Shown: piece by piece, positions 1,913 through 12,459 of the stretch | Layout: the number at the start of each line of letters is the position of its first letter | Numbering within the stretch: the first letter of the stretch is position 1 | IMG/VR virus record: IMGVR_UViG_2667527976_000007 | Strand: one strand, 5' to 3' | Source of the DNA: a virus | Lineage: Duplodnaviria; Heunggongvirae; Uroviricota; Caudoviricetes | DNA length: 34,515 nucleotides | The notes under the pieces: generated by a model | What the model was told of the DNA's origin: nothing | Seen by the model: the letters and a program-made list of their open reading frames with translations, nothing else | Database searches by the model: none | Position numbers and translations under genes: made by a program

Positions 1913-2628
1913 CTGGCCTCCAGTTTCTGTTGTTCCTGCCCACTGACCGGGCGGTGCAGTCTGACGTTCTGCCCTTCACGAAACCCCGCATAGCGCGAGG
2001 CGTCGCCATTGCGGCTTCTTCCCGGTTTACGCGCCCTGGTGGTTTGCGTCTGCGGGTATTTATGTTCCAGCCACTGCTGCATCAGTTCACGCTCATCATC
2101 GGTCAGGGCAAAGGACTGTATTTCACTGATAACGGCCAGCACCCAGCCTTCGGCAAACTGGTCTCCACGGCTGGTGCGGGTGGCGGTTTTTATTCTTTTG
2201 TTCTGTGCACTGATATACTGCTGACGCGCCTTTTTCAGCTGACGGGCCAGCACTTCCCAGGTGTATGCAGCCAGTGCCGCACGTTCCCGGTTGCCGTAGA
2301 ACCCCACAGACGGATGCGTGCCGGGGTGAATGATGGAGTTAACACCAAATACCTCGCGGATGATGTTCATCAGGCCCAGCATGTAGCGCGGTGGACGGAG
2401 ACTGCCTGTCGGCCAGTAGTGACTGATGGTTTCATCAATATCACTCATAGCAATGTCGGAATGTGTGATGCCGTGAACATCCATCAGTTTACGGGCTCGG
2501 CGCAGTGCCAGAGCGGCCTCGTGCGGGTTGCCGGATGCGGCCAGCGCCAGCAACTTTTTCAGTTTCTCAATGTGTTTATTCTGGTCTGTCATTGTTCTGT
2601 ATCTCCGGTATTTTTCTGCCGTTTCCAT
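1909..2628 (-). CDS. DUF2786-like phage early protein
   Basis: 239 aa; N-terminal 'KLLALAASGNPHEAALALRRARKLM' block is characteristic of the DUF2786 family common in phage early regions. Confidence 0.55.
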   Translation of the reverse strand: METAEKYRRYRTMTDQNKHIEKLKKLLALAASGNPHEAALALRRARKLMDVHGITHSDIAMSDIDETISHYWPTGSLRPPRYMLGLMNIIREVFGVNSIIHPGTHPSVGFYGNRERAALAAYTWEVLARQLKKARQQYISAQNKRIKTATRTSRGDQFAEGWVLAVISEIQSFALTDDERELMQQWLEHKYPQTQTTRARKPGRSRNGDASRYAGFREGQNVRLHRPVSGQEQQKLEAR

Positions 2629-2804
2629 GCCCGGACAGCGTCGGACAGCTCTTTCAGGCTGTATGCTGCTTTAAGCTTTTCCCATAACCACTGTGTTGTT
2701 ATGTGCATCAGCAGGGCAGCCAGGGCTGCCCCCGCACTGAGGCATGTCGCCAGGCCAGTAAGAATCAGTGTCCATGCGGTGATTTCCCTGAGTATGTCAG
2801 CCAT
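2589..2804 (-). CDS. small hydrophobic protein (71 aa)
   Basis: ORF with one strongly hydrophobic central segment; sits in the early operon in the same orientation. Confidence 0.4.
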   Translation of the reverse strand: MADILREITAWTLILTGLATCLSAGAALAALLMHITTQWLWEKLKAAYSLKELSDAVRAWKRQKNTGDTEQ

Positions 2805-2818
2805 TGAATGCCTCCCGG

Positions 2819-3115
2819 TTACTCGTTCGTGTAAATCACGCCCAGTCGTGCAGCCAGACGTTCCAGTTTTTTCTGTTTGTGGAAGTCAATCAGCCGGTCC
2901 ATCCCCTGAAGGCGCAGTTGCTCTGTCATGATTTCCACGTCTGCCAGCTCTGCCGCGAGGTCACTTTCGCTGCCCTGTCCGTTCAGGTTGCGGGCGGCAC
3001 TGGCCGCCAGTTCAGCGGCCTCTTCTGCCAGTTTCAGGGCCTGTGCGTCCGGCCCGAAACGCTGCAGGGCCAGACGGTAGAGGGCGGTGCGGGTGAGTTC
3101 GGTGTTTCGTGTCAT
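2819..3115 (-). CDS. hypothetical early protein (98 aa)
   Basis: ORF in operon orientation with tight spacing to neighbours; alpha-helical, Ala/Leu-rich; no recognisable domain. Confidence 0.45.
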   Translation of the reverse strand: MTRNTELTRTALYRLALQRFGPDAQALKLAEEAAELAASAARNLNGQGSESDLAAELADVEIMTEQLRLQGMDRLIDFHKQKKLERLAARLGVIYTNE

Positions 3116-3124
3116 GCCGCGCCC

Positions 3125-3397
3125 TCAGTGCTTCCGGCTGACGGTGATGTGCAGGCCGCCTTCTGCAGTGGTTTCCATCCGGTACGGCACCTCATGCTCT
3201 GCCGTGTGGGTGAGTGTGTTCATCAGTACCTGCAGGGCAGCCTCCTTTCCGTTGGTCGCCACAATGGCCTGTGTGGCCATGCTGATTAGCGCCGTCAGGA
3301 CGTGCTTCACATCGGTGAGGTCGCGGCATTCACACTCGTTGACATAGTGTTCAACAAGAGTTCGGGTGCGCTGTCGTGCTTCCTGTGGGGTAATCAT
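3125..3397 (-). CDS. hypothetical early protein (90 aa)
   Basis: ORF in operon orientation; its start overlaps the stop of the upstream zinc-ribbon ORF. Confidence 0.45.
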   Translation of the reverse strand: MITPQEARQRTRTLVEHYVNECECRDLTDVKHVLTALISMATQAIVATNGKEAALQVLMNTLTHTAEHEVPYRMETTAEGGLHITVSRKH

Positions 3398-3588
3398 TGC
3401 GCGTCCTCCCTGTCAGGGCGGGAGAATTCCATGACGGGCACGTCCGCCGAAAAATGCTGGCTGCAGTACGGGCAGACCAGGGTGACACGTACTGCAGGTA
3501 TGTGATACTTACCGGACATCACGGCGATGGCGCTGTGAAAACGCAGGGCTGTTATATCCCTCTCGCACTGAATACATTTAAATATCAT
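3394..3588 (-). CDS. small zinc-ribbon protein (two CxxC pairs)
   Basis: 64 aa with 'CIQC' and 'CPYC' motifs; RBS-like GAGGAG upstream on the minus strand. Confidence 0.5.
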   Translation of the reverse strand: MIFKCIQCERDITALRFHSAIAVMSGKYHIPAVRVTLVCPYCSQHFSADVPVMEFSRPDREDAQ

Positions 3589-3685
3589 AATTTAATTCTC
3601 CTCTGTTTCCGGCGTGCAGAAGCCCGCGGCGCTGACGCCGGAATAAAAAAGAAAATGTTTTTATTAAATAATTAACGTGGTGTGT

Positions 3686-4216
3686 TTACTGCACATCCTG
3701 CTCAAAAGGAATTATTGAAAAATCCTCAATATCACTTTTTATGGTAATACCGGGAATATTTTTCACAGCCTCTTTTTCATTCAGAATGGCATCTTTATTT
3801 ATTTCCTCCTTTACACGAATAAAGCGCTCAAGCCCCAGACGTCTCAGCAGTTCAATGACATTATCCGCCCCGCGAATGCTGACTGACGGCGGACGGTTTC
3901 GCCACTGCACCTCGCCGGTGGTGAGGTTAGCGAACTTCACCTTCCCGTTGCCGGTCAGTTCATCACGGTGCGCCTCACACCATGTCTGGATACCGGACTG
4001 CAGTTCGGCCATGCGTTTTTTCAGGCTCTCGGTGAGCGGGGCATAACGTGCAGTGATGTCGCCAATGGTGTCATTCATTTCTGTTTCAGCCCTGACCAGT
4101 TCACGTTGCGCGTCACCAAGCAGTCTGATTCCCTCAATGACCTCTTCGCGTGTCCCCGGCACCCAGAGTGCTGCTGCGGCTTTGATACGTTTTGCCCCTT
4201 TTGTACTTTTTGCCAT
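3686..4216 (-). CDS. gam: Gam-like host-nuclease inhibitor (Mu Gam family)
   Basis: 176 aa; 'MAK...KRIKAAAA...EMND.I..IT...AP....L...W...HRDELT..GKVKFANLTTGEVQWR.RPPSVSIRG.D.V.E.L.RLGL.RFIR.K.EINK.AIL.E......GI..KS.IEDFSIIPFEQ' closely parallels Mu Gam as I recall it; AGGAGG RBS upstream. Confidence 0.85.
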   Translation of the reverse strand: MAKSTKGAKRIKAAAALWVPGTREEVIEGIRLLGDAQRELVRAETEMNDTIGDITARYAPLTESLKKRMAELQSGIQTWCEAHRDELTGNGKVKFANLTTGEVQWRNRPPSVSIRGADNVIELLRRLGLERFIRVKEEINKDAILNEKEAVKNIPGITIKSDIEDFSIIPFEQDVQ

Positions 4217-4243
4217 ATTTTATGACTCCTCCTGTTGTGCTGA

Positions 4244-4513
4244 TTACCACAAAGATTCCGGCCACACGACGCGACAGCCGTGCAGTTCGAAAACGCCCTG
4301 ACGGAAATGTCCCCTGTGGTCATGACCGGTATACAGATAACAGGCCTTTCCCTGCTCAAGCATGCGCATGCAATGCGCACTCCGGGAAACGCGGATGACA
4401 GGTTTGTTACCCCTGATGGTGATGCTTTGTACATCCGTGTTCGTCGCCTTAAGCGCCATAATGGCTGACTGCACTTTGCTGATTTGCTGGTTGATACCTG
4501 TGGTGGATTTCAT
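4244..4513 (-). CDS. hypothetical early protein (Kil position, 89 aa)
   Basis: ORF immediately downstream of the MuB-like gene, where Mu carries kil; no sequence-level assignment possible. Confidence 0.4.
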   Translation of the reverse strand: MKSTTGINQQISKVQSAIMALKATNTDVQSITIRGNKPVIRVSRSAHCMRMLEQGKACYLYTGHDHRGHFRQGVFELHGCRVVWPESLW

Positions 4514-4515
4514 TA

Positions 4516-5682
4516 TTAAACCCCTTTGACAACGTCAGCGTTGACCTGTGGAACCCCGATTTCAGCGGCCAGATTCATGGCGGCTATTACCAGGTTACTG
4601 ACGGCCAGCGGATACAGCAGGCTGACCATATTTTTACGATGACTTCCCGGATTGCTCAGGCGGGCACGTATGGCATCCACTGCGCTGGCGTCCATAATGT
4701 CCGTCAGTTGTTTACCGGCCCGTTGCAGTTTGAACGTCAGAAACTCTTCAAGGTTATTGTCCAGAGGCAGAAGTTCGACCACCTCACAGCGCTGAACGAC
4801 TTCACGGACTTCCATATTGCGTTCAGACAGTTTTGTCGCCAGTTCCGGCTGGCCAATCAGCACGATGGACAGCAGTTTTTTGAAACCGGACTCCAGCTCA
4901 AAAAAGCGTTTGAGGTGTTTCAGTGTCGGAATGGGCAGACTGTGGGCCTCCTCAATCACCAGAACGTGGCTGAACCCCGCCTGGCTGCTGTCTTTCAGGA
5001 CGCGATGCAACTGGCGAAAGCGGGCGTCCTGACTGCGTCTGATGCTTTCCAGTGGTGCGATGGTACTGATAATGGCTTCGGCAATCGCTGCTGCCTTCAG
5101 GGTTTTCCCTTTCACATCGTTGTCTTCCATAGCGATGATGTATGGCTCGATAACAATTACCGGCGCATTCTCGCGGTTGATACGTTCAGTCAGGTCGCGG
5201 CGCAGCGTGGATTTACCCGCACCGGACTCACCGATGACGGCCATAAACCCACCATGACGGGCTGTCTGGTACAACGCCTCACGCACGTAGCGAATATCCG
5301 GGGTGGTGAACACATCATCAGAACCCTGCATGGCTTCGTCGGCGAACGGGTCACGGAAAAGACCAAACGCTTTTTTGGTTGCTGGAAATAACACCTGTTT
5401 TTTGAGTAACATATTCTCTTCCTCACTGAGGCTCGTTTTATCTGTGGTACCCGCTGTACGGGGCGTGGCCGCGCCCTGTACAGCATCAAAACTCTTCGTT
5501 GTATCAATCCCCTGACTTTCCAGCCAGGACGCAAGACGCCGGCGCACTTCTCCGGGGCTGGTGCGGGGCCACGCGTTATGATTCACAATCTGGGCCAGCG
5601 TGGCCTCAGAAACATCGACAGCTCTCGCCACCACCGCCTGTGGAATACGGGCCTCTTTCAGTTGCTGCTTCAGTACCAGCAT
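4516..5682 (-). CDS. MuB-like transposition ATPase (AAA+)
   Basis: Walker A 'GESGAGKST'; N-terminal HTH-like region; directly downstream of the transposase. Start set to the ATG at 5682, which follows GGAGGG 5 nt after the transposase TGA, rather than the upstream in-frame ATG at 5721. Confidence 0.8.
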   Translation of the reverse strand: MLVLKQQLKEARIPQAVVARAVDVSEATLAQIVNHNAWPRTSPGEVRRRLASWLESQGIDTTKSFDAVQGAATPRTAGTTDKTSLSEEENMLLKKQVLFPATKKAFGLFRDPFADEAMQGSDDVFTTPDIRYVREALYQTARHGGFMAVIGESGAGKSTLRRDLTERINRENAPVIVIEPYIIAMEDNDVKGKTLKAAAIAEAIISTIAPLESIRRSQDARFRQLHRVLKDSSQAGFSHVLVIEEAHSLPIPTLKHLKRFFELESGFKKLLSIVLIGQPELATKLSERNMEVREVVQRCEVVELLPLDNNLEEFLTFKLQRAGKQLTDIMDASAVDAIRARLSNPGSHRKNMVSLLYPLAVSNLVIAAMNLAAEIGVPQVNADVVKGV

Positions 5683-9483: not shown

Positions 9484-10491
9484 ATGTCTGAGCAGACCAT
9501 TGAAGTTAAACACGTTGTAGTTCACATTTTAGACAAACAACAAAATGGAGACGCTTCTGAGAGATTGAGTCCTGAAGAAGGTCTAGTTACTGAAGCCTCC
9601 CAGCGCCTTATAAACGATATTTGTGCAAAATATGCAGGACGCACAGGTAAAGGTTATGGCTATTTTGAAGGCGATACGGATAACTATCCTATGGAACGAA
9701 TGGCTGGGGACTTTCTCGAAGGTGTTGATGATTTCTACCAAAGTTCCTGCCGAATGATGCATCACCTGACGGAACGTTCTCAGCGAGAAAACATGGCTAC
9801 TGGTGGTTATGTTCTTTTTGCAAATATCGTGATAGGACACAATGAACACCTGTTGATAGCTATTGTAAGCGCTACCATTGGATCCACTGTCACAGATGAT
9901 TTTAACATCCAAGATAGTACCTATCTTGATATTGCTAAGCTGCGTATGGCTGGGCGCATTGACTTAACCGCGTGGGAAAGTGGCGCAGAGCGCTATATCA
10001 GTTTTCTTAAGGGGCAAGGTAATGTTTCAAACTATTTTAAACAGTTCCTCGGCTGTAATGATGTCTTAATCGCCAAACGAGAGTCTGAAAAGTTACGTGA
10101 CGTTTTAAAAGCATTTGCGGCAGAGAAAGGACTTGACGGCGCTGAAAAAGATGCATTTCTTAAGAGTGCGTTTGAACACTTACATGCACTAAGTAAGGCT
10201 GGTGAACCACTTAGTCTTGAAACCCTTGTTAATGCCATTTGGCCCCAGGCTCCCGAGGAGTTATCTGGTAAACTTGCTGCTGAAGAGTTGGAGTTATCGG
10301 ATGGCTTCGTTCCTGATGGTCGAGTCATTCGGGCTCTGGTATCTTTTAAAGGCAAGTCTAAATATTGGGAACTTAAGTTTGACCGGGAAGGGAAAACTGA
10401 AGGCTATATTGATTATGATCCGGAAACAAATATTATCACCCTACGTAATGTACCTGAAGAATTTAGGGAAATGTGGATGACTGAGGTTTAA
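9484..10491 (+). CDS. YejK/NdpA-like nucleoid-associated protein (NA37 family) homologue
   Basis: 335 aa, the same length as E. coli YejK; blocks 'YLDIAKLRMAGRIDLTAWESGAERYISFLKG' and C-terminal 'YDPETNIITLRNVPEEF' parallel YejK blocks as I recall them; AAGGTGG RBS upstream; markedly AT-rich. Confidence 0.6.
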   Translation: MSEQTIEVKHVVVHILDKQQNGDASERLSPEEGLVTEASQRLINDICAKYAGRTGKGYGYFEGDTDNYPMERMAGDFLEGVDDFYQSSCRMMHHLTERSQRENMATGGYVLFANIVIGHNEHLLIAIVSATIGSTVTDDFNIQDSTYLDIAKLRMAGRIDLTAWESGAERYISFLKGQGNVSNYFKQFLGCNDVLIAKRESEKLRDVLKAFAAEKGLDGAEKDAFLKSAFEHLHALSKAGEPLSLETLVNAIWPQAPEELSGKLAAEELELSDGFVPDGRVIRALVSFKGKSKYWELKFDREGKTEGYIDYDPETNIITLRNVPEEFREMWMTEV

Positions 10492-10493
10492 TC

Positions 10494-11699
10494 GTGGCGA
10501 TTTCATTTGAGATGCTGACAGATCTGTATCGTCGTATGGAATTCCAAGAGGGGTTTCGTGTCGGTTCGCTGTTGCTCTTAGATCAGTCCGATTGTGATCT
10601 GGTTGATACTTTGCTTGATGATCCTCGTGAATATGGTCTTTCTATTGATACAGGCACTATCGCTCCAGGTAACACGATCATCCTACGTGTGACGTCACCA
10701 CGGAGTGGACTGGGACTTGTGTTTTCCACCCATGAAAAATTGCTAAATGCTCCAAAGCATCAGTGCCTTGAGCCAGCTAATTACTTCATCCTAGAAACAA
10801 AGTTTCGTAATGATGATGAAGATATCCCCGTTTTCATCAGCAACTACCGGAAGATTCTCGAGTTCGTTAACCTGCTAAAAGAGGCCGCGGCCTACTTTGA
10901 TAACTCAACTTGTCAGTTAGTTTTTCTGAAAAAAGAAGTTATCAAGCTATTACCGCACTTCGCTGCAGAAAATGTACAAAATTTGCAAAGAGAGTATCTT
11001 GATAACCTTATAGCTTGTTTCAATGATGATACCCATAAGGATCAGAAGCTAGATATTCTGATTGAAAGTATCCAAGCAGTTAGTGATGGAATTGATTCAC
11101 CTCTAGTATTCGCTTATTTACTGGACAATATTCAGCGTCTGCATGAAAAGTTTCTGAAAGGGTATCGTATCTACTCTTCTGGATTCTCTTATGACAAAGT
11201 AATGGATCAACTGCGTGCTGCAAAAGTCGAAGAAATGGGTAAAATCCACAAAGCGTTTTCAGATATCCAGAACCATATACTTGGCATTCCTGTTGCCTCT
11301 GTTATCGTAGCTACCCAATTCAAAGTGGCTACGAAATGGTCAGGCCAAGGGATAACAAACACAATAATTCTTCTGGGATGCATTTTTGCTGCAACGTTAA
11401 TCTGGCTGGCACTTTCGAACCAGATGCAATCTATAAAGGCCTTAGGCGAAGAAATTGAATACAAAGAAAAACAGATTAATAAGGAATATTCCTTCATTAA
11501 AGATGACGTGGCTGGTGTATTTAGCAGTATTTCTGCGCGACTAGACACGCAGAAACGTACGTTCTGGATTATACGTGGTGTTCTAGTTATGGGAATTATT
11601 ACCGCTATCACTGTTTATTTTTGGTACACAAAACCAGCCCTTGACTTCATGCAGTACTTGATTCACTGCATGAAGTCTTACTATTCGGTCAAAAGTTGA
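10494..11699 (+). CDS. uncharacterised protein with soluble N-terminal domain and two C-terminal TM helices
   Basis: GTG start 2 nt after the upstream TAA (translational coupling); predicted TM helices at about residues 287-307 and 357-377; no recognisable catalytic motif; AT-rich. Confidence 0.55.
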   Translation: MAISFEMLTDLYRRMEFQEGFRVGSLLLLDQSDCDLVDTLLDDPREYGLSIDTGTIAPGNTIILRVTSPRSGLGLVFSTHEKLLNAPKHQCLEPANYFILETKFRNDDEDIPVFISNYRKILEFVNLLKEAAAYFDNSTCQLVFLKKEVIKLLPHFAAENVQNLQREYLDNLIACFNDDTHKDQKLDILIESIQAVSDGIDSPLVFAYLLDNIQRLHEKFLKGYRIYSSGFSYDKVMDQLRAAKVEEMGKIHKAFSDIQNHILGIPVASVIVATQFKVATKWSGQGITNTIILLGCIFAATLIWLALSNQMQSIKALGEEIEYKEKQINKEYSFIKDDVAGVFSSISARLDTQKRTFWIIRGVLVMGIITAITVYFWYTKPALDFMQYLIHCMKSYYSVKS

Positions 11700-12459
11700 G
11701 GATAATGAGTTCCTTCTTGCGACTGGATTTGCCAGTGATCTTGAGGTTGTAGCTGATATCAACCGACTGAATATTTAGACCGTTGAATGCCTGCCGCATT
11801 TCCGGGATATCGTTCACCGATATAATCATCTTCCCTTTGATCCTGCGTGCTAAATCTGCCATATGATCATAATTTTCTAGTCCGAACTCCACACCATAAC
11901 CTTCCGTTCCCCAGTATGGAGGGTCACAGTAGAACAACGTATGCGGGCGATCATATCGTTCTATGCACTGTTGCCAGTCCATGTGTTCTATGACCGTTCT
12001 GGAAAGCCGCAGGTGTGCCGCTGACAGTTCTTCTTCAATACGCAGCAGGTTGAAGCGTGGCGGGGATATGGTGGAGGTACCAAAGCTGTGCTCCGCCACC
12101 TTGCCTCCAAACGCCTGCTTCTGAAGGTAGTAGAACCGTGCTGCACGCTGGATATCCGTCAGTGTTTCTTCCGGGGTGATCTGCAGCCATTTGTAGATCT
12201 GCCGGCTGACCAGCGCCCATTTGAACTGGCGTACAAATTCTTCCAGATGATGTTTTACCACCCGATACAGGTTCACCAGTTCACCGTTGATATCATTAAT
12301 GACTTCGATCTTGCCGGGTACCTTAAGAAAATAGAGCGCTGCTGCCCCACAAAACGGCTCCACATAACATTCATGCGCCGGAAACAGCGGCAGGATGTGT
12401 TTTGCAAGGCGGCGTTTGCCACCAATCCATGGAACGATGGGTAATGTCTGCATTTTCAT
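11689..12459 (-). CDS. DNA N6-adenine methyltransferase (Dam/D12-class family)
   Basis: 256 aa; N-terminal 'VEPFCGAAALYF' (SAM-binding motif I) and catalytic 'DPPY' motif; convergent with the cargo operon, overlapping its end by 11 nt. Confidence 0.8.
   Translation of the reverse strand: MKMQTLPIVPWIGGKRRLAKHILPLFPAHECYVEPFCGAAALYFLKVPGKIEVINDINGELVNLYRVVKHHLEEFVRQFKWALVSRQIYKWLQITPEETLTDIQRAARFYYLQKQAFGGKVAEHSFGTSTISPPRFNLLRIEEELSAAHLRLSRTVIEHMDWQQCIERYDRPHTLFYCDPPYWGTEGYGVEFGLENYDHMADLARRIKGKMIISVNDIPEMRQAFNGLNIQSVDISYNLKITGKSSRKKELIILNF

Follow-up and report, generated by a model that had tools for sequence, protein, structure and literature searches.

Six small early genes of a BcepMu-type Escherichia coli prophage and their probable correspondence to the semi-essential region of Mu

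What do the six small genes do that lie between the MuB-like ATPase gene and the DUF2786 gene of a prophage found in about one in nine complete Escherichia coli genomes, ST131 strains among them? A first-pass annotation of the 34,515-nucleotide stretch of DNA analysed here (the window) read them as candidate host-takeover or anti-defence genes and compared the block to the accessory early region of Mu. Our analysis bears out the comparison, in the position of the block after B, in the presence of Gam and in that of a Kil-like protein. We consider it probable that the six ORFs represent the middle of a BcepMu-type early operon and the functional counterpart of the Mu semi-essential region.

Layout of the early operon and coding status of its six small genes

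The prophage in the window is of the Bcepmuvirus type, i.e. a BcepMu-type transposable phage, and its insertion site is adiC. The region, which 637 of 5426 complete E. coli genomes carry, matches phage PhiKM with 98% identity. The early operon covers about 8 kb of the minus strand and encodes, in order, regulators, a DUF3102 protein, transposase A, ATPase B, the six small proteins, the DUF2786 protein, two further small proteins, GemA and Mor. The best sigma-70-like site (11/12) is found at 8989-8962 on the minus strand, upstream of the operon; terminator-like sites occurred no more frequently than expected by chance. The six ORFs, of 64 to 176 aa, were confirmed in coordinates and in strand (all minus), flanked on one side by the gene for the AAA_22 MuB-like ATPase and on the other by that for the DUF2786+DUF7168 protein. 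They had been described as tightly packed and, for the most part, they are: the first ATG of the block, that of the 4244-4513 gene, abuts the stop codon of B, ATGA stop/start overlaps occur at 3394-3397 and 2589-2592, and the remaining intergenic gaps measure 9-27 nt, apart from the one that separates the zinc-ribbon gene from Gam (97 nt).

Each of the six ORFs has a PHROG match (E 1e-34 to 2e-73), the RefSeq/PGAP gene calls are the same six genes, and pN is well below pS in all six when compared to diverged copies. No usable NCBIfam match was obtained for any of the six proteins, none matched the defence models of PADLOC, and a search of Rfam gave nothing in the whole window. It is very improbable that some of these ORFs, notably those of 64 and 71 aa, are spurious and untranslated. 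This idea would draw on their short length, on the PhiKM record, which has a plus-strand ORF over the zinc-ribbon gene instead, and on the antisense frames that are open in several relatives. However, the coding signature is restricted to the sense frame (pS 0.78 and pN 0.26 for the zinc-ribbon gene vs. 0.36 and 0.37, respectively, for the antisense ORF of the PhiKM annotation), and we rejected the plus-strand ORF (3397-3675) as non-coding on this basis. Moreover, the four Cys of the zinc ribbon are invariant at 25% identity, PHROG matches are seen at 1e-40, both genes are called by PGAP, and Shine-Dalgarno sequences and stop/start coupling are present.

The first-pass annotation had named a lack of conservation in any related phage, together with the absence of a phenotype on expression, as an observation that would count against its proposal; the ORFs are conserved in related phages and prophages. 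Thirteen related loci from other Enterobacterales genera have the order A-B-Kil-like-(Gam or DUF3164)-zinc ribbon, followed by the MazG-like gene in 11 of the 13 and then by GemA-Mor.

A Gam protein and probable relatives of Kil and MazG

Although Gam had been thought to be the only recognisable product, three of the six have recognisable roles (Gam, the Kil-like protein and a MazG-like protein), the other three offering clues from fold or topology only. With recognisable roles in half of the genes, we see in the block an accessory region of the kind usual in phages, and no new system. Throughout, the biochemical activities of all six proteins and the timing of their expression are those that we infer.

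The 176-aa product of 3686-4216 (minus strand) belongs to the Mu Gam family of DNA-end-binding proteins. It matches the Pfam family Phage_Mu_Gam (PF07352) with 139.5 bits (1.1e-40; cut-off 28.3), residues 23-169 covering profile positions 1-148 of 149, and shows an identity of 61.5% with Mu Gam across 169 aa (E 7e-66). By homology, the protein would bind double-stranded DNA ends and block RecBCD. Gam of the Mu type, which blocks RecBCD, is in turn sensed by the Gabija system (PMC12407980). In sister lineages, Gam is replaced by DUF3164.

The first gene of the block (4244-4513, minus strand), directly after the MuB-like gene, encodes an 89-aa protein that matches phrog_2041 at 1e-36, is called 'HI_1482 family' by PGAP, and has a weak match to phrog_6381 'Kil' (E 0.023). 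BLASTP aligned only 22 residues with Mu Kil. In hhalign comparisons of its family (85 cluster representatives), full-length alignments were obtained both with Mu Kil (88.2%, E 3e-6) and with a two-sequence Kil alignment (84.2%, E 7.4e-6), while about 30 other small phage proteins used as controls all scored below 2%. Members of the family also match the Kil PHROGs (5/55 each for phrog_6381 and phrog_2743). The gene lies directly after B in each of the 12 related Enterobacterales loci in which B is present, and two genes after B in the distant family member L023; a search for related loci with one distant member gave no viral-contig locus. These data suggest that the 4244-4513 product is probably a distant relative of Mu Kil, which would link the phrog_2041 / 'HI_1482 family' annotation to the Mu Kil superfamily. 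Cells expressing Mu kil become spherical and die (Waggoner 1989, cited in PMC3961180), and the Kil-like protein would most likely arrest host growth or envelope synthesis.

Structure prediction, proposed in the first-pass annotation and run here on the Kil-like protein and the zinc ribbon, yielded models of similar pLDDT (84 and 84.8, respectively, with AF2) but no significant PDB match for either. In Foldseek, no PDB structure matched the Kil-like model at E <= 0.001; complex I subunits and the MenT toxin, which ranked highest, had E > 0.01 and were taken as noise. In BFVD, the best match was an uncharacterised Myoviridae protein (5.3e-7); only uncharacterised phage proteins were retrieved, and Mu Kil was absent among the 50 matches listed. 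A PDB sequence search with the family profile gave nothing significant.

The 98-aa product of 2819-3115 (minus strand), missed by the first-pass annotation, is a predicted MazG-like all-alpha NTP pyrophosphohydrolase. It matches phrog_2245 (5.5e-34) and, more weakly, three further MazG/NTP-PPase PHROGs, and in the PGAP annotation it is a 'nucleoside triphosphate pyrophosphohydrolase family protein'. The acidic metal-binding motif EExxE(12-28)ExxD is intact (E32-E33-A-A-E36 ... E57-L-A-D60) and is kept in the homologues from KP12, L009 and L017; that of L020 has K at the second position (EKAAE), and in that of L018 the stretch separating the two motifs is gone. The Pfam PRA-PH scores were below the 21.3-bit cut-off both for the window protein (15.5 bits) and for its KP12 homologue (19.6 bits), phmmer of the protein against the PDB gave no match, and a local HMM of the family lined up the motifs of E. 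coli MazG and BcepMu gp06 correctly, with scores that were not significant. We propose that the enzyme may hydrolyse nucleoside polyphosphates, non-canonical (d)NTPs or (p)ppGpp. A homologue also follows DUF3164 in the true Mu-type phage Kp4866-3; a MazG-like enzyme recurs in early arms of the Mu type and of the BcepMu type alike.

By analogy, this enzyme may also claim the best published anti-defence precedent, that of Atd1 from Pectobacterium phage PcCB7V, a phage MazG-like (p)ppGpp pyrophosphatase that depletes (p)ppGpp and confers protection from TIR effectors (bioRxiv 10.1101/2022.06.09.495361). Going by its description, Atd1 resembles the window enzyme in being a short phage protein with a single MazG-type catalytic domain and acidic metal-binding motifs. 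In the phage collection, tblastn with the window protein found only four records, all from Escherichia or Klebsiella phages, and no Pectobacterium record.

The zinc ribbon, its upstream stem-loop and the two variable genes

The zinc-ribbon gene (3394-3588, minus strand; phrog_3401) encodes a 64-aa protein with two CxxC motifs, whose four Cys (C5, C8, C39 and C42) are invariant in seven sequences, down to 25% identity. The gene is syntenic in all 13 related Enterobacterales loci. The AF2 model, built on a 3-sequence alignment, is all-beta. Its best Foldseek matches in the PDB were the zinc ribbons of NrdR, which were not significant (E 0.06-0.3, TM 0.46-0.51); Cren7 and eIF5A also appeared at E > 0.06, as a weak lead. 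In hhalign, the protein aligned with Mu gp6 (phrog_3786) over 40 columns with a 10-residue gap (74%, E 2.8e-5), compared to 12% for gp13, the other Cys-rich Mu protein. The zinc ribbon and Mu gp6 belong to different PHROGs, and both match phrog_4875 weakly. We propose that this small, conserved protein is probably a nucleic-acid-binding factor and possibly the counterpart of Mu gp6.

The zinc ribbon is the most conserved of the unknowns and not a fast-changing accessory protein, and a core phage function fits its conservation better than strain-specific counter-defence. Both this protein and the ORF in the position of kil had been singled out in the first-pass annotation as the most plausible candidates for host takeover or anti-defence. 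The host-takeover reading survives in part, through the functions predicted for the Kil-like protein, Gam and the MazG-like enzyme.

The 97 nt that separate the zinc-ribbon gene from Gam contain a stem-loop (3607-3643, minus strand) with an MFE of -29.5 kcal/mol (z = -3.95). Fifteen pairs are conserved across 11 loci, with one compensatory C-G to U-A change and a single broken cell, in the outermost pair. The element has no Rfam match. We rejected it as an intrinsic terminator: on the transcribed strand the U-tract precedes the stem, and neither strand has a T-run after it.

A potential role for this element would be as the target, in RNA or DNA, of the zinc ribbon, which would thereby regulate the downstream half of the early operon through translation or transcript stability, much as Mu Com acts on the mom leader. 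We regard this role as quite improbable. It would account for the maintenance of the stem-loop sequence, compensatory change included, while the flanking genes diverge or get swapped; in the extended fold, the U-tract beside the stem-loop is predicted to pair with the Shine-Dalgarno sequence of the zinc-ribbon gene and sequester it, the gene is coupled in translation to the next by an ATGA overlap, and the top folds are those of DNA-binding NrdR zinc ribbons. Those fold matches, however, are not significant (TM about 0.5), and in Pfam the protein resembles neither the Com nor the Ogr family. Furthermore, L020 has the zinc-ribbon gene without the stem-loop, the stop codon of Gam abutting its start, and the hairpin could be a mere recombination boundary or an mRNA-stability element.

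The two other genes vary between strains. The 90-aa protein (3125-3397, minus strand; phrog_3691) has 41 homologues, almost all in E. coli, and its gene was found in only one of the 13 loci from other genera. It is locally hypervariable, with an amino acid identity of 76-83% vs. 96-99% for the neighbouring genes, a dN/dS of 0.43-0.46 and mosaic N-terminal alleles. A PDB sequence search with the family profile gave nothing significant. The 71-aa product of 2589-2804 (minus strand; phrog_3958, 1.1e-41) is a predicted single-pass membrane peptide. The first-pass annotation spoke of membrane peptides in the plural, but this is the only one of the six with a transmembrane-grade hydrophobic segment (KD19 = 1.98 at residues 14-32 vs. 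<=1.31 in the other five). The gene is present in 533 of the 637 region-carrying genomes, missing in about 100 of them and absent from variant L005. When the 90-aa protein, the membrane peptide and the MazG-like protein were compared directly, by BLAST or phmmer, to the full set of early proteins of Mu and BcepMu, no relatives turned up. We propose that the 90-aa protein and the membrane peptide are strain-variable accessory genes.

Could the whole block be a dedicated anti-defence island, each small protein inhibiting a host immune system and the content turning over under arms-race selection? The swap between Gam and DUF3164, the patchy membrane peptide and the hypervariable 90-aa protein (dN/dS about 0.45) would be in keeping with this, as would the precedents of Atd1 and Mu-type Gam cited above. 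We nevertheless consider it unlikely. None of the six proteins could be linked, by sequence or by fold, to a described anti-defence protein in the searches made, in which the PADLOC models represent defence systems. The zinc-ribbon and MazG-like genes belong to a stable core that extends across genera (pS saturated, pN low), and tblastn gave the MazG-like protein no detectable tie to the source phage of Atd1, if that phage is in the collection. More obvious cargo for defence and counter-defence is found away from the block, at 9.4-12.5 kb, and comprises a Dam-like methyltransferase, NA37 and a KwaA-like ORF.

A narrower proposal is that the stem-loop, the zinc ribbon and the MazG-like enzyme form one regulated module erasing a nucleotide alarm signal, either (p)ppGpp or a defence second messenger, during replication, with the 90-aa protein as an arms-race inhibitor of a host immune protein. 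It seems to us quite improbable; if true, a very common E. coli prophage would be a source of new counter-defence genes.

Comparison with Mu and BcepMu

The reading we favour, a counterpart of the Mu semi-essential region, draws in part on the comparison with other transposable phages. The semi-essential early region of Mu (kil/gp5, gp6-gp9, gam/gp10, gp11-gp15, gemA and mor) occupies the same position, after B and before GemA/Mor, with the same strand logic and small, tightly packed genes. The two have Gam in common; in addition, the Kil-like protein aligns with Mu Kil over its full length in profile comparisons, and the zinc ribbon shows a weak match to gp6. They differ in several respects: unlike those of Mu, the A and B proteins of the window are of the BcepMu (Tn552/ExeA-like) type and its early arm as a whole is inverted with respect to the late genes; the window has MazG-like and DUF2786 genes, both of which Mu lacks; its Kil-like protein exceeds Mu Kil in length by 15 aa and has an additional helix and hairpin; and its gene order is Kil-Gam-Zn, as opposed to Kil-gp6...Gam in Mu.

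According to this reading, the six genes would be expressed along with the transposition proteins, upon infection or induction, and their products would condition the host for replicative transposition. The block would be a mixed bag of functions rather than one system, with growth or envelope arrest by the Kil-like protein, end protection by Gam, nucleic-acid binding by the zinc ribbon, polyphosphate hydrolysis by the MazG-like enzyme and two accessory genes. With the timing assumed here, each induction of the phage would switch on these early genes, in a large proportion of clinical isolates. Our understanding of transposable phages would be unchanged; the gain lies in better annotation, with the zinc ribbon flagged as a conserved core gene and possible Mu gp6 counterpart, and in a short list of genes for toxicity and counter-defence screens.

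The early arm of Burkholderia phage BcepMu (gp01 Mor to gp09 transposase) has the same genus-level architecture as the window, sharing the order Mor-GemA...pyrophosphatase-gp07-B-A. Its gp07 comes after B, belongs weakly to the Kil-like network (hhalign 71%, phrog_2041 at 0.008), and is followed by the pyrophosphatase gene gp06, in the same place as the MazG-like gene of the window. However, the BcepMu pyrophosphatase (145 aa) has no BLAST similarity to the 98-aa enzyme, and BcepMu has DUF3164, HU and an SSB-like gene but lacks Gam, the zinc ribbon, the 90-aa protein and DUF2786.

Klebsiella phage KP12 and Salmonella-type BcepMu-like prophages share with the window the order B-Kil-like-[slot]-hairpin-Zn-MazG-...-GemA-Mor, with identities of 69% for the Kil-like protein, 55% for the zinc ribbon and 74% for the MazG-like protein. 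In these prophages, DUF3164 takes the place of Gam, and the 90-aa gene and the membrane peptide are both missing. KP12 itself encodes a 128-aa protein in place of DUF2786.

A BcepMu-type early gene cluster

The six small ORFs downstream of the MuB-like ATPase gene (B) proved to be as tightly packed as initially described, each lying on the minus strand at its proposed position: Kil-like (4244-4513; phrog_2041, 1e-36), Gam (3686-4216; phrog_491, 2e-73), zinc ribbon (3394-3588; phrog_3401, 1e-40), a 90-aa protein (3125-3397; phrog_3691, 4e-56), MazG-like (2819-3115; phrog_2245, 5.5e-34) and a membrane peptide (2589-2804; phrog_3958, 1e-41). All six PHROG matches run end to end, and PGAP makes identical gene calls in RefSeq genomes. 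The stop codon of B abuts the ATG of the Kil-like gene, 27 nt separate the latter from Gam, which has an AGGAGG Shine-Dalgarno, and ATGA overlaps connect the zinc-ribbon gene to the 90-aa gene and the membrane-peptide gene to the DUF2786 gene. Compared with diverged copies, pN was well below pS in all six genes (0.19 vs. 0.81 for the Kil-like gene, 0.30 vs. 0.74 for the zinc-ribbon gene and 0.19 vs. 0.60 for the MazG-like gene); the dN/dS ratio of the Gam gene was 0.04. Only one of the six, 2589-2804, has a transmembrane-grade segment, and the plural "membrane peptides" of the first-pass annotation is thus not borne out.

The cluster corresponds, in a BcepMu-type element, to the semi-essential region of Mu. 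Its surroundings on the minus strand consist, in order, of HTH regulators, DUF3102, a DDE transposase, the ExeA/AAA_22 "MuB-like" ATPase, the six small genes, DUF2786/DUF7168, two small genes, GemA and Mor, the same arrangement as the inverted early arm described for the Burkholderia phage BcepMu. Among sigma-70-like sites of the first 9.5 kb, the strongest (TTGACA-16-TACAAT, 11/12) occupies 8989-8962 of the minus strand, within the divergent regulatory gap, and terminator-like sites are fewer than expected by chance (4 vs. 9.9). Combined with the overlapping stops and starts, these features are in keeping with one early transcript. Two further small early genes outside the cluster are conserved, encoding a 76-aa basic protein (1682-1912), with homologues in only some related loci, and a 68-aa hydrophobic protein (1486-1692), with a homologue in most; both lack a family assignment.

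The element itself is already known: it is common, has been sequenced as a phage and is clustered in PHROGs. Over its whole length, region 2400-4700 shares 98.0% identity with Escherichia phage PhiKM, classified in Bcepmuvirus; of 5426 complete E. coli genomes, 637 have the region, 619 of them with at least 80% of it. What the analysis adds is better annotation and a shortlist of genes for experimental work.

The probable Kil relative and the exchangeable Gam slot

A word-indexed search with the Kil-like protein (4244-4513) returned close Enterobacterales relatives only, while a full HMM search, run against 1.84 billion cluster representatives, yielded 85 family proteins at E <= 1e-3, mostly of 85-120 aa and sharing the pattern L..G..V...RP.I.I...C...G.A.Y...G.F...GCRVVW. 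A 55-sequence profile of the family matched whole Mu Kil with 88.2% probability (E 3e-6) and a two-sequence Kil alignment (Mu and the Klebsiella Mu-type phage Kp4866-3) with 84.2%. Control comparisons with some 30 further small proteins of Mu, BcepMu and the window remained below 2%, except for BcepMu gp07 (71%). All 55 members match phrog_2041, and five each match phrog_6381 and phrog_2743, both annotated as Kil and both matched by Mu Kil; BcepMu gp07 matches phrog_2043 and, weakly, phrog_2041. On these profile matches, we take the Kil-like family, Mu Kil and BcepMu gp07 to form a single superfamily of early "after-B" proteins. The AF2 model is confident (pLDDT 84, pTM 0.72) and has an N-terminal helix followed by a hairpin, a short helix and three strands. 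Since this model matches no solved structure, and Mu Kil is absent among the BFVD matches listed for it, the relationship of 4244-4513 to Mu Kil is probable rather than proven. Expression of Mu kil gives spherical, dying cells (Waggoner 1989, as reported in PMC3961180); "Kil-like" is a label for a phenotype class, not for a mechanism.

ORF 3686-4216 is clearly a Gam family member (139.5 bits on Pfam Phage_Mu_Gam). Its identity to Mu Gam is 61.5%, although the transposition genes of the window are not of Mu type. In 12 of 13 loci from other Enterobacterales genera, and in Klebsiella phage KP12, the slot between the Kil-like and zinc-ribbon genes is occupied by a DUF3164 protein, Gam itself being found only in the Symbiopectobacterium locus (L020). 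Gam thus resembles an exchangeable cassette. The early arm of BcepMu, too, contains a gene for a DUF3164 protein. Mu-type Gam stops RecBCD loading and so licenses attack by Gabija (PMC12407980), which would be a plausible selective reason for Gam/DUF3164 swaps.

The cluster's only real gap, 97 nt between the Gam and zinc-ribbon genes, contains a GC-rich stem-loop (3607-3643, minus strand). It is nearly invariant in 11 loci, including those with DUF3164 upstream; L020 lacks it. Across the 11 loci we counted one compensatory change (C-G to U-A), several changes compatible with wobble pairing, and one broken cell, which affects the outermost pair. In an extended fold (-29.5 kcal/mol, z = -3.95), an upstream U-tract pairs with the zinc-ribbon Shine-Dalgarno. 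On neither strand does the stem-loop resemble a terminator, and Rfam has no match for it. It might act as a translational operator, stabilise the mRNA or mark a conserved boundary for cassette exchange.

A conserved zinc ribbon and a MazG-like enzyme

The zinc-ribbon family is small, but the gene (3394-3588) is present in 13 of 13 related loci, always directly after the Gam/DUF3164 slot, with C5, C8, C39 and C42 invariant down to 25% identity. Such constancy favours a core role in the phage over that of a strain-specific inhibitor. The AF2 model, built from a three-sequence alignment, is all-beta (pLDDT 84.8), and its best PDB matches, to the N-terminal DNA-binding zinc ribbons of NrdR, fall short of significance (E 0.06-0.3). 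The family profile aligns both knuckles with Mu gp6, a 76-aa protein encoded after kil (74%, E 2.8e-5), vs. 12% for gp13, the other Cys-rich Mu protein, making it a possible counterpart of gp6. A hypothetical protein annotated in PhiKM on the plus strand over this gene (L001 5055-5276) has near-equal pS and pN (0.36 and 0.37) and is non-coding, vs. 0.78 and 0.26 in the minus-strand frame; the real gene is the zinc ribbon.

Gam was said to be the only recognisable product; however, 2819-3115 is MazG-like by PHROG, PGAP name and acidic motifs. PGAP gives it the name of phrog_2245, "nucleoside triphosphate pyrophosphohydrolase", three further NTP-PPase/MazG PHROGs match more weakly, and it contains E32-E33-A-A-E36 and E57-L-A-D60. 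Such motifs are the metal-binding signature of all-alpha NTP pyrophosphohydrolases, and most homologues from other genera retain them, with K at the second position in L020. Because the Pfam PRA-PH score stays below threshold, the protein is filed at superfamily level only, as a putative all-alpha NTP pyrophosphohydrolase. In a Candidatus Erwinia dacicola insect-symbiont prophage (L018 5218-5427), the segment between the two motifs is deleted, and this is probably a decaying copy.

The gene occurs in 11 of 13 related loci, Kp4866-3 encodes a homologue with a fused C-terminal extension after DUF3164, and BcepMu has a pyrophosphatase, unrelated to the window enzyme, at the same place. Nucleotide pyrophosphatase thus appears to be a recurrent early function of transposable phages. 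The enzyme might clean non-canonical dNTPs during massive replicative transposition, or it might remove an alarmone, as does the phage MazG-like protein Atd1 (bioRxiv 10.1101/2022.06.09.495361).

The first-pass annotation saw in these ORFs candidate host-takeover or anti-defence genes, favouring the zinc ribbon and the Kil-position ORF. This reading is half right: the probable Kil relative, Gam and the MazG-like enzyme plausibly act on the host, but nothing links any of the six genes to a specific anti-defence mechanism, and the zinc ribbon behaves as a conserved core gene.

Variable genes, insertion site and cargo island

The 90-aa protein (3125-3397) is almost limited to E. coli prophages (1 of 13 loci from other genera). 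Its copies are 76-83% identical between prophages where neighbouring genes are 96-99% identical, with a dN/dS of 0.43-0.46 and mosaic or recombinant N-terminal alleles; the gene is a local divergence hot spot. The membrane peptide (2589-2804) was found in 533 genomes, vs. 637 with the region, and is missing from a variant locus (L005) in which the MazG-like gene directly overlaps that for DUF2786. Among the six, these two proteins are the leading candidates for accessory roles specific to the host.

Positions 1-510 encode the N-terminal part of an arginine/agmatine-antiporter-type protein, by eye presumably AdiC, that breaks off abruptly. The gene is cut at 510 by the left prophage end (junction about 505-545), and transposable prophage sequence starts at about 540; phage insertion appears to have inactivated an acid-resistance transporter gene. 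An island of low GC content (9484-12459; 41-42%) separates the CI-type repressor from the late genes. It contains genes for a nucleoid-associated protein like NA37/YejK (Pfam 1e-80), a 401-aa product with a weak C-terminal match to Kiwa KwaA (PADLOC 8e-5) and, on the opposite strand, a D12 Dam-like N6-adenine methyltransferase (PADLOC MTase_II 4e-115). The phage's real cargo for defence and counter-defence may be this island.
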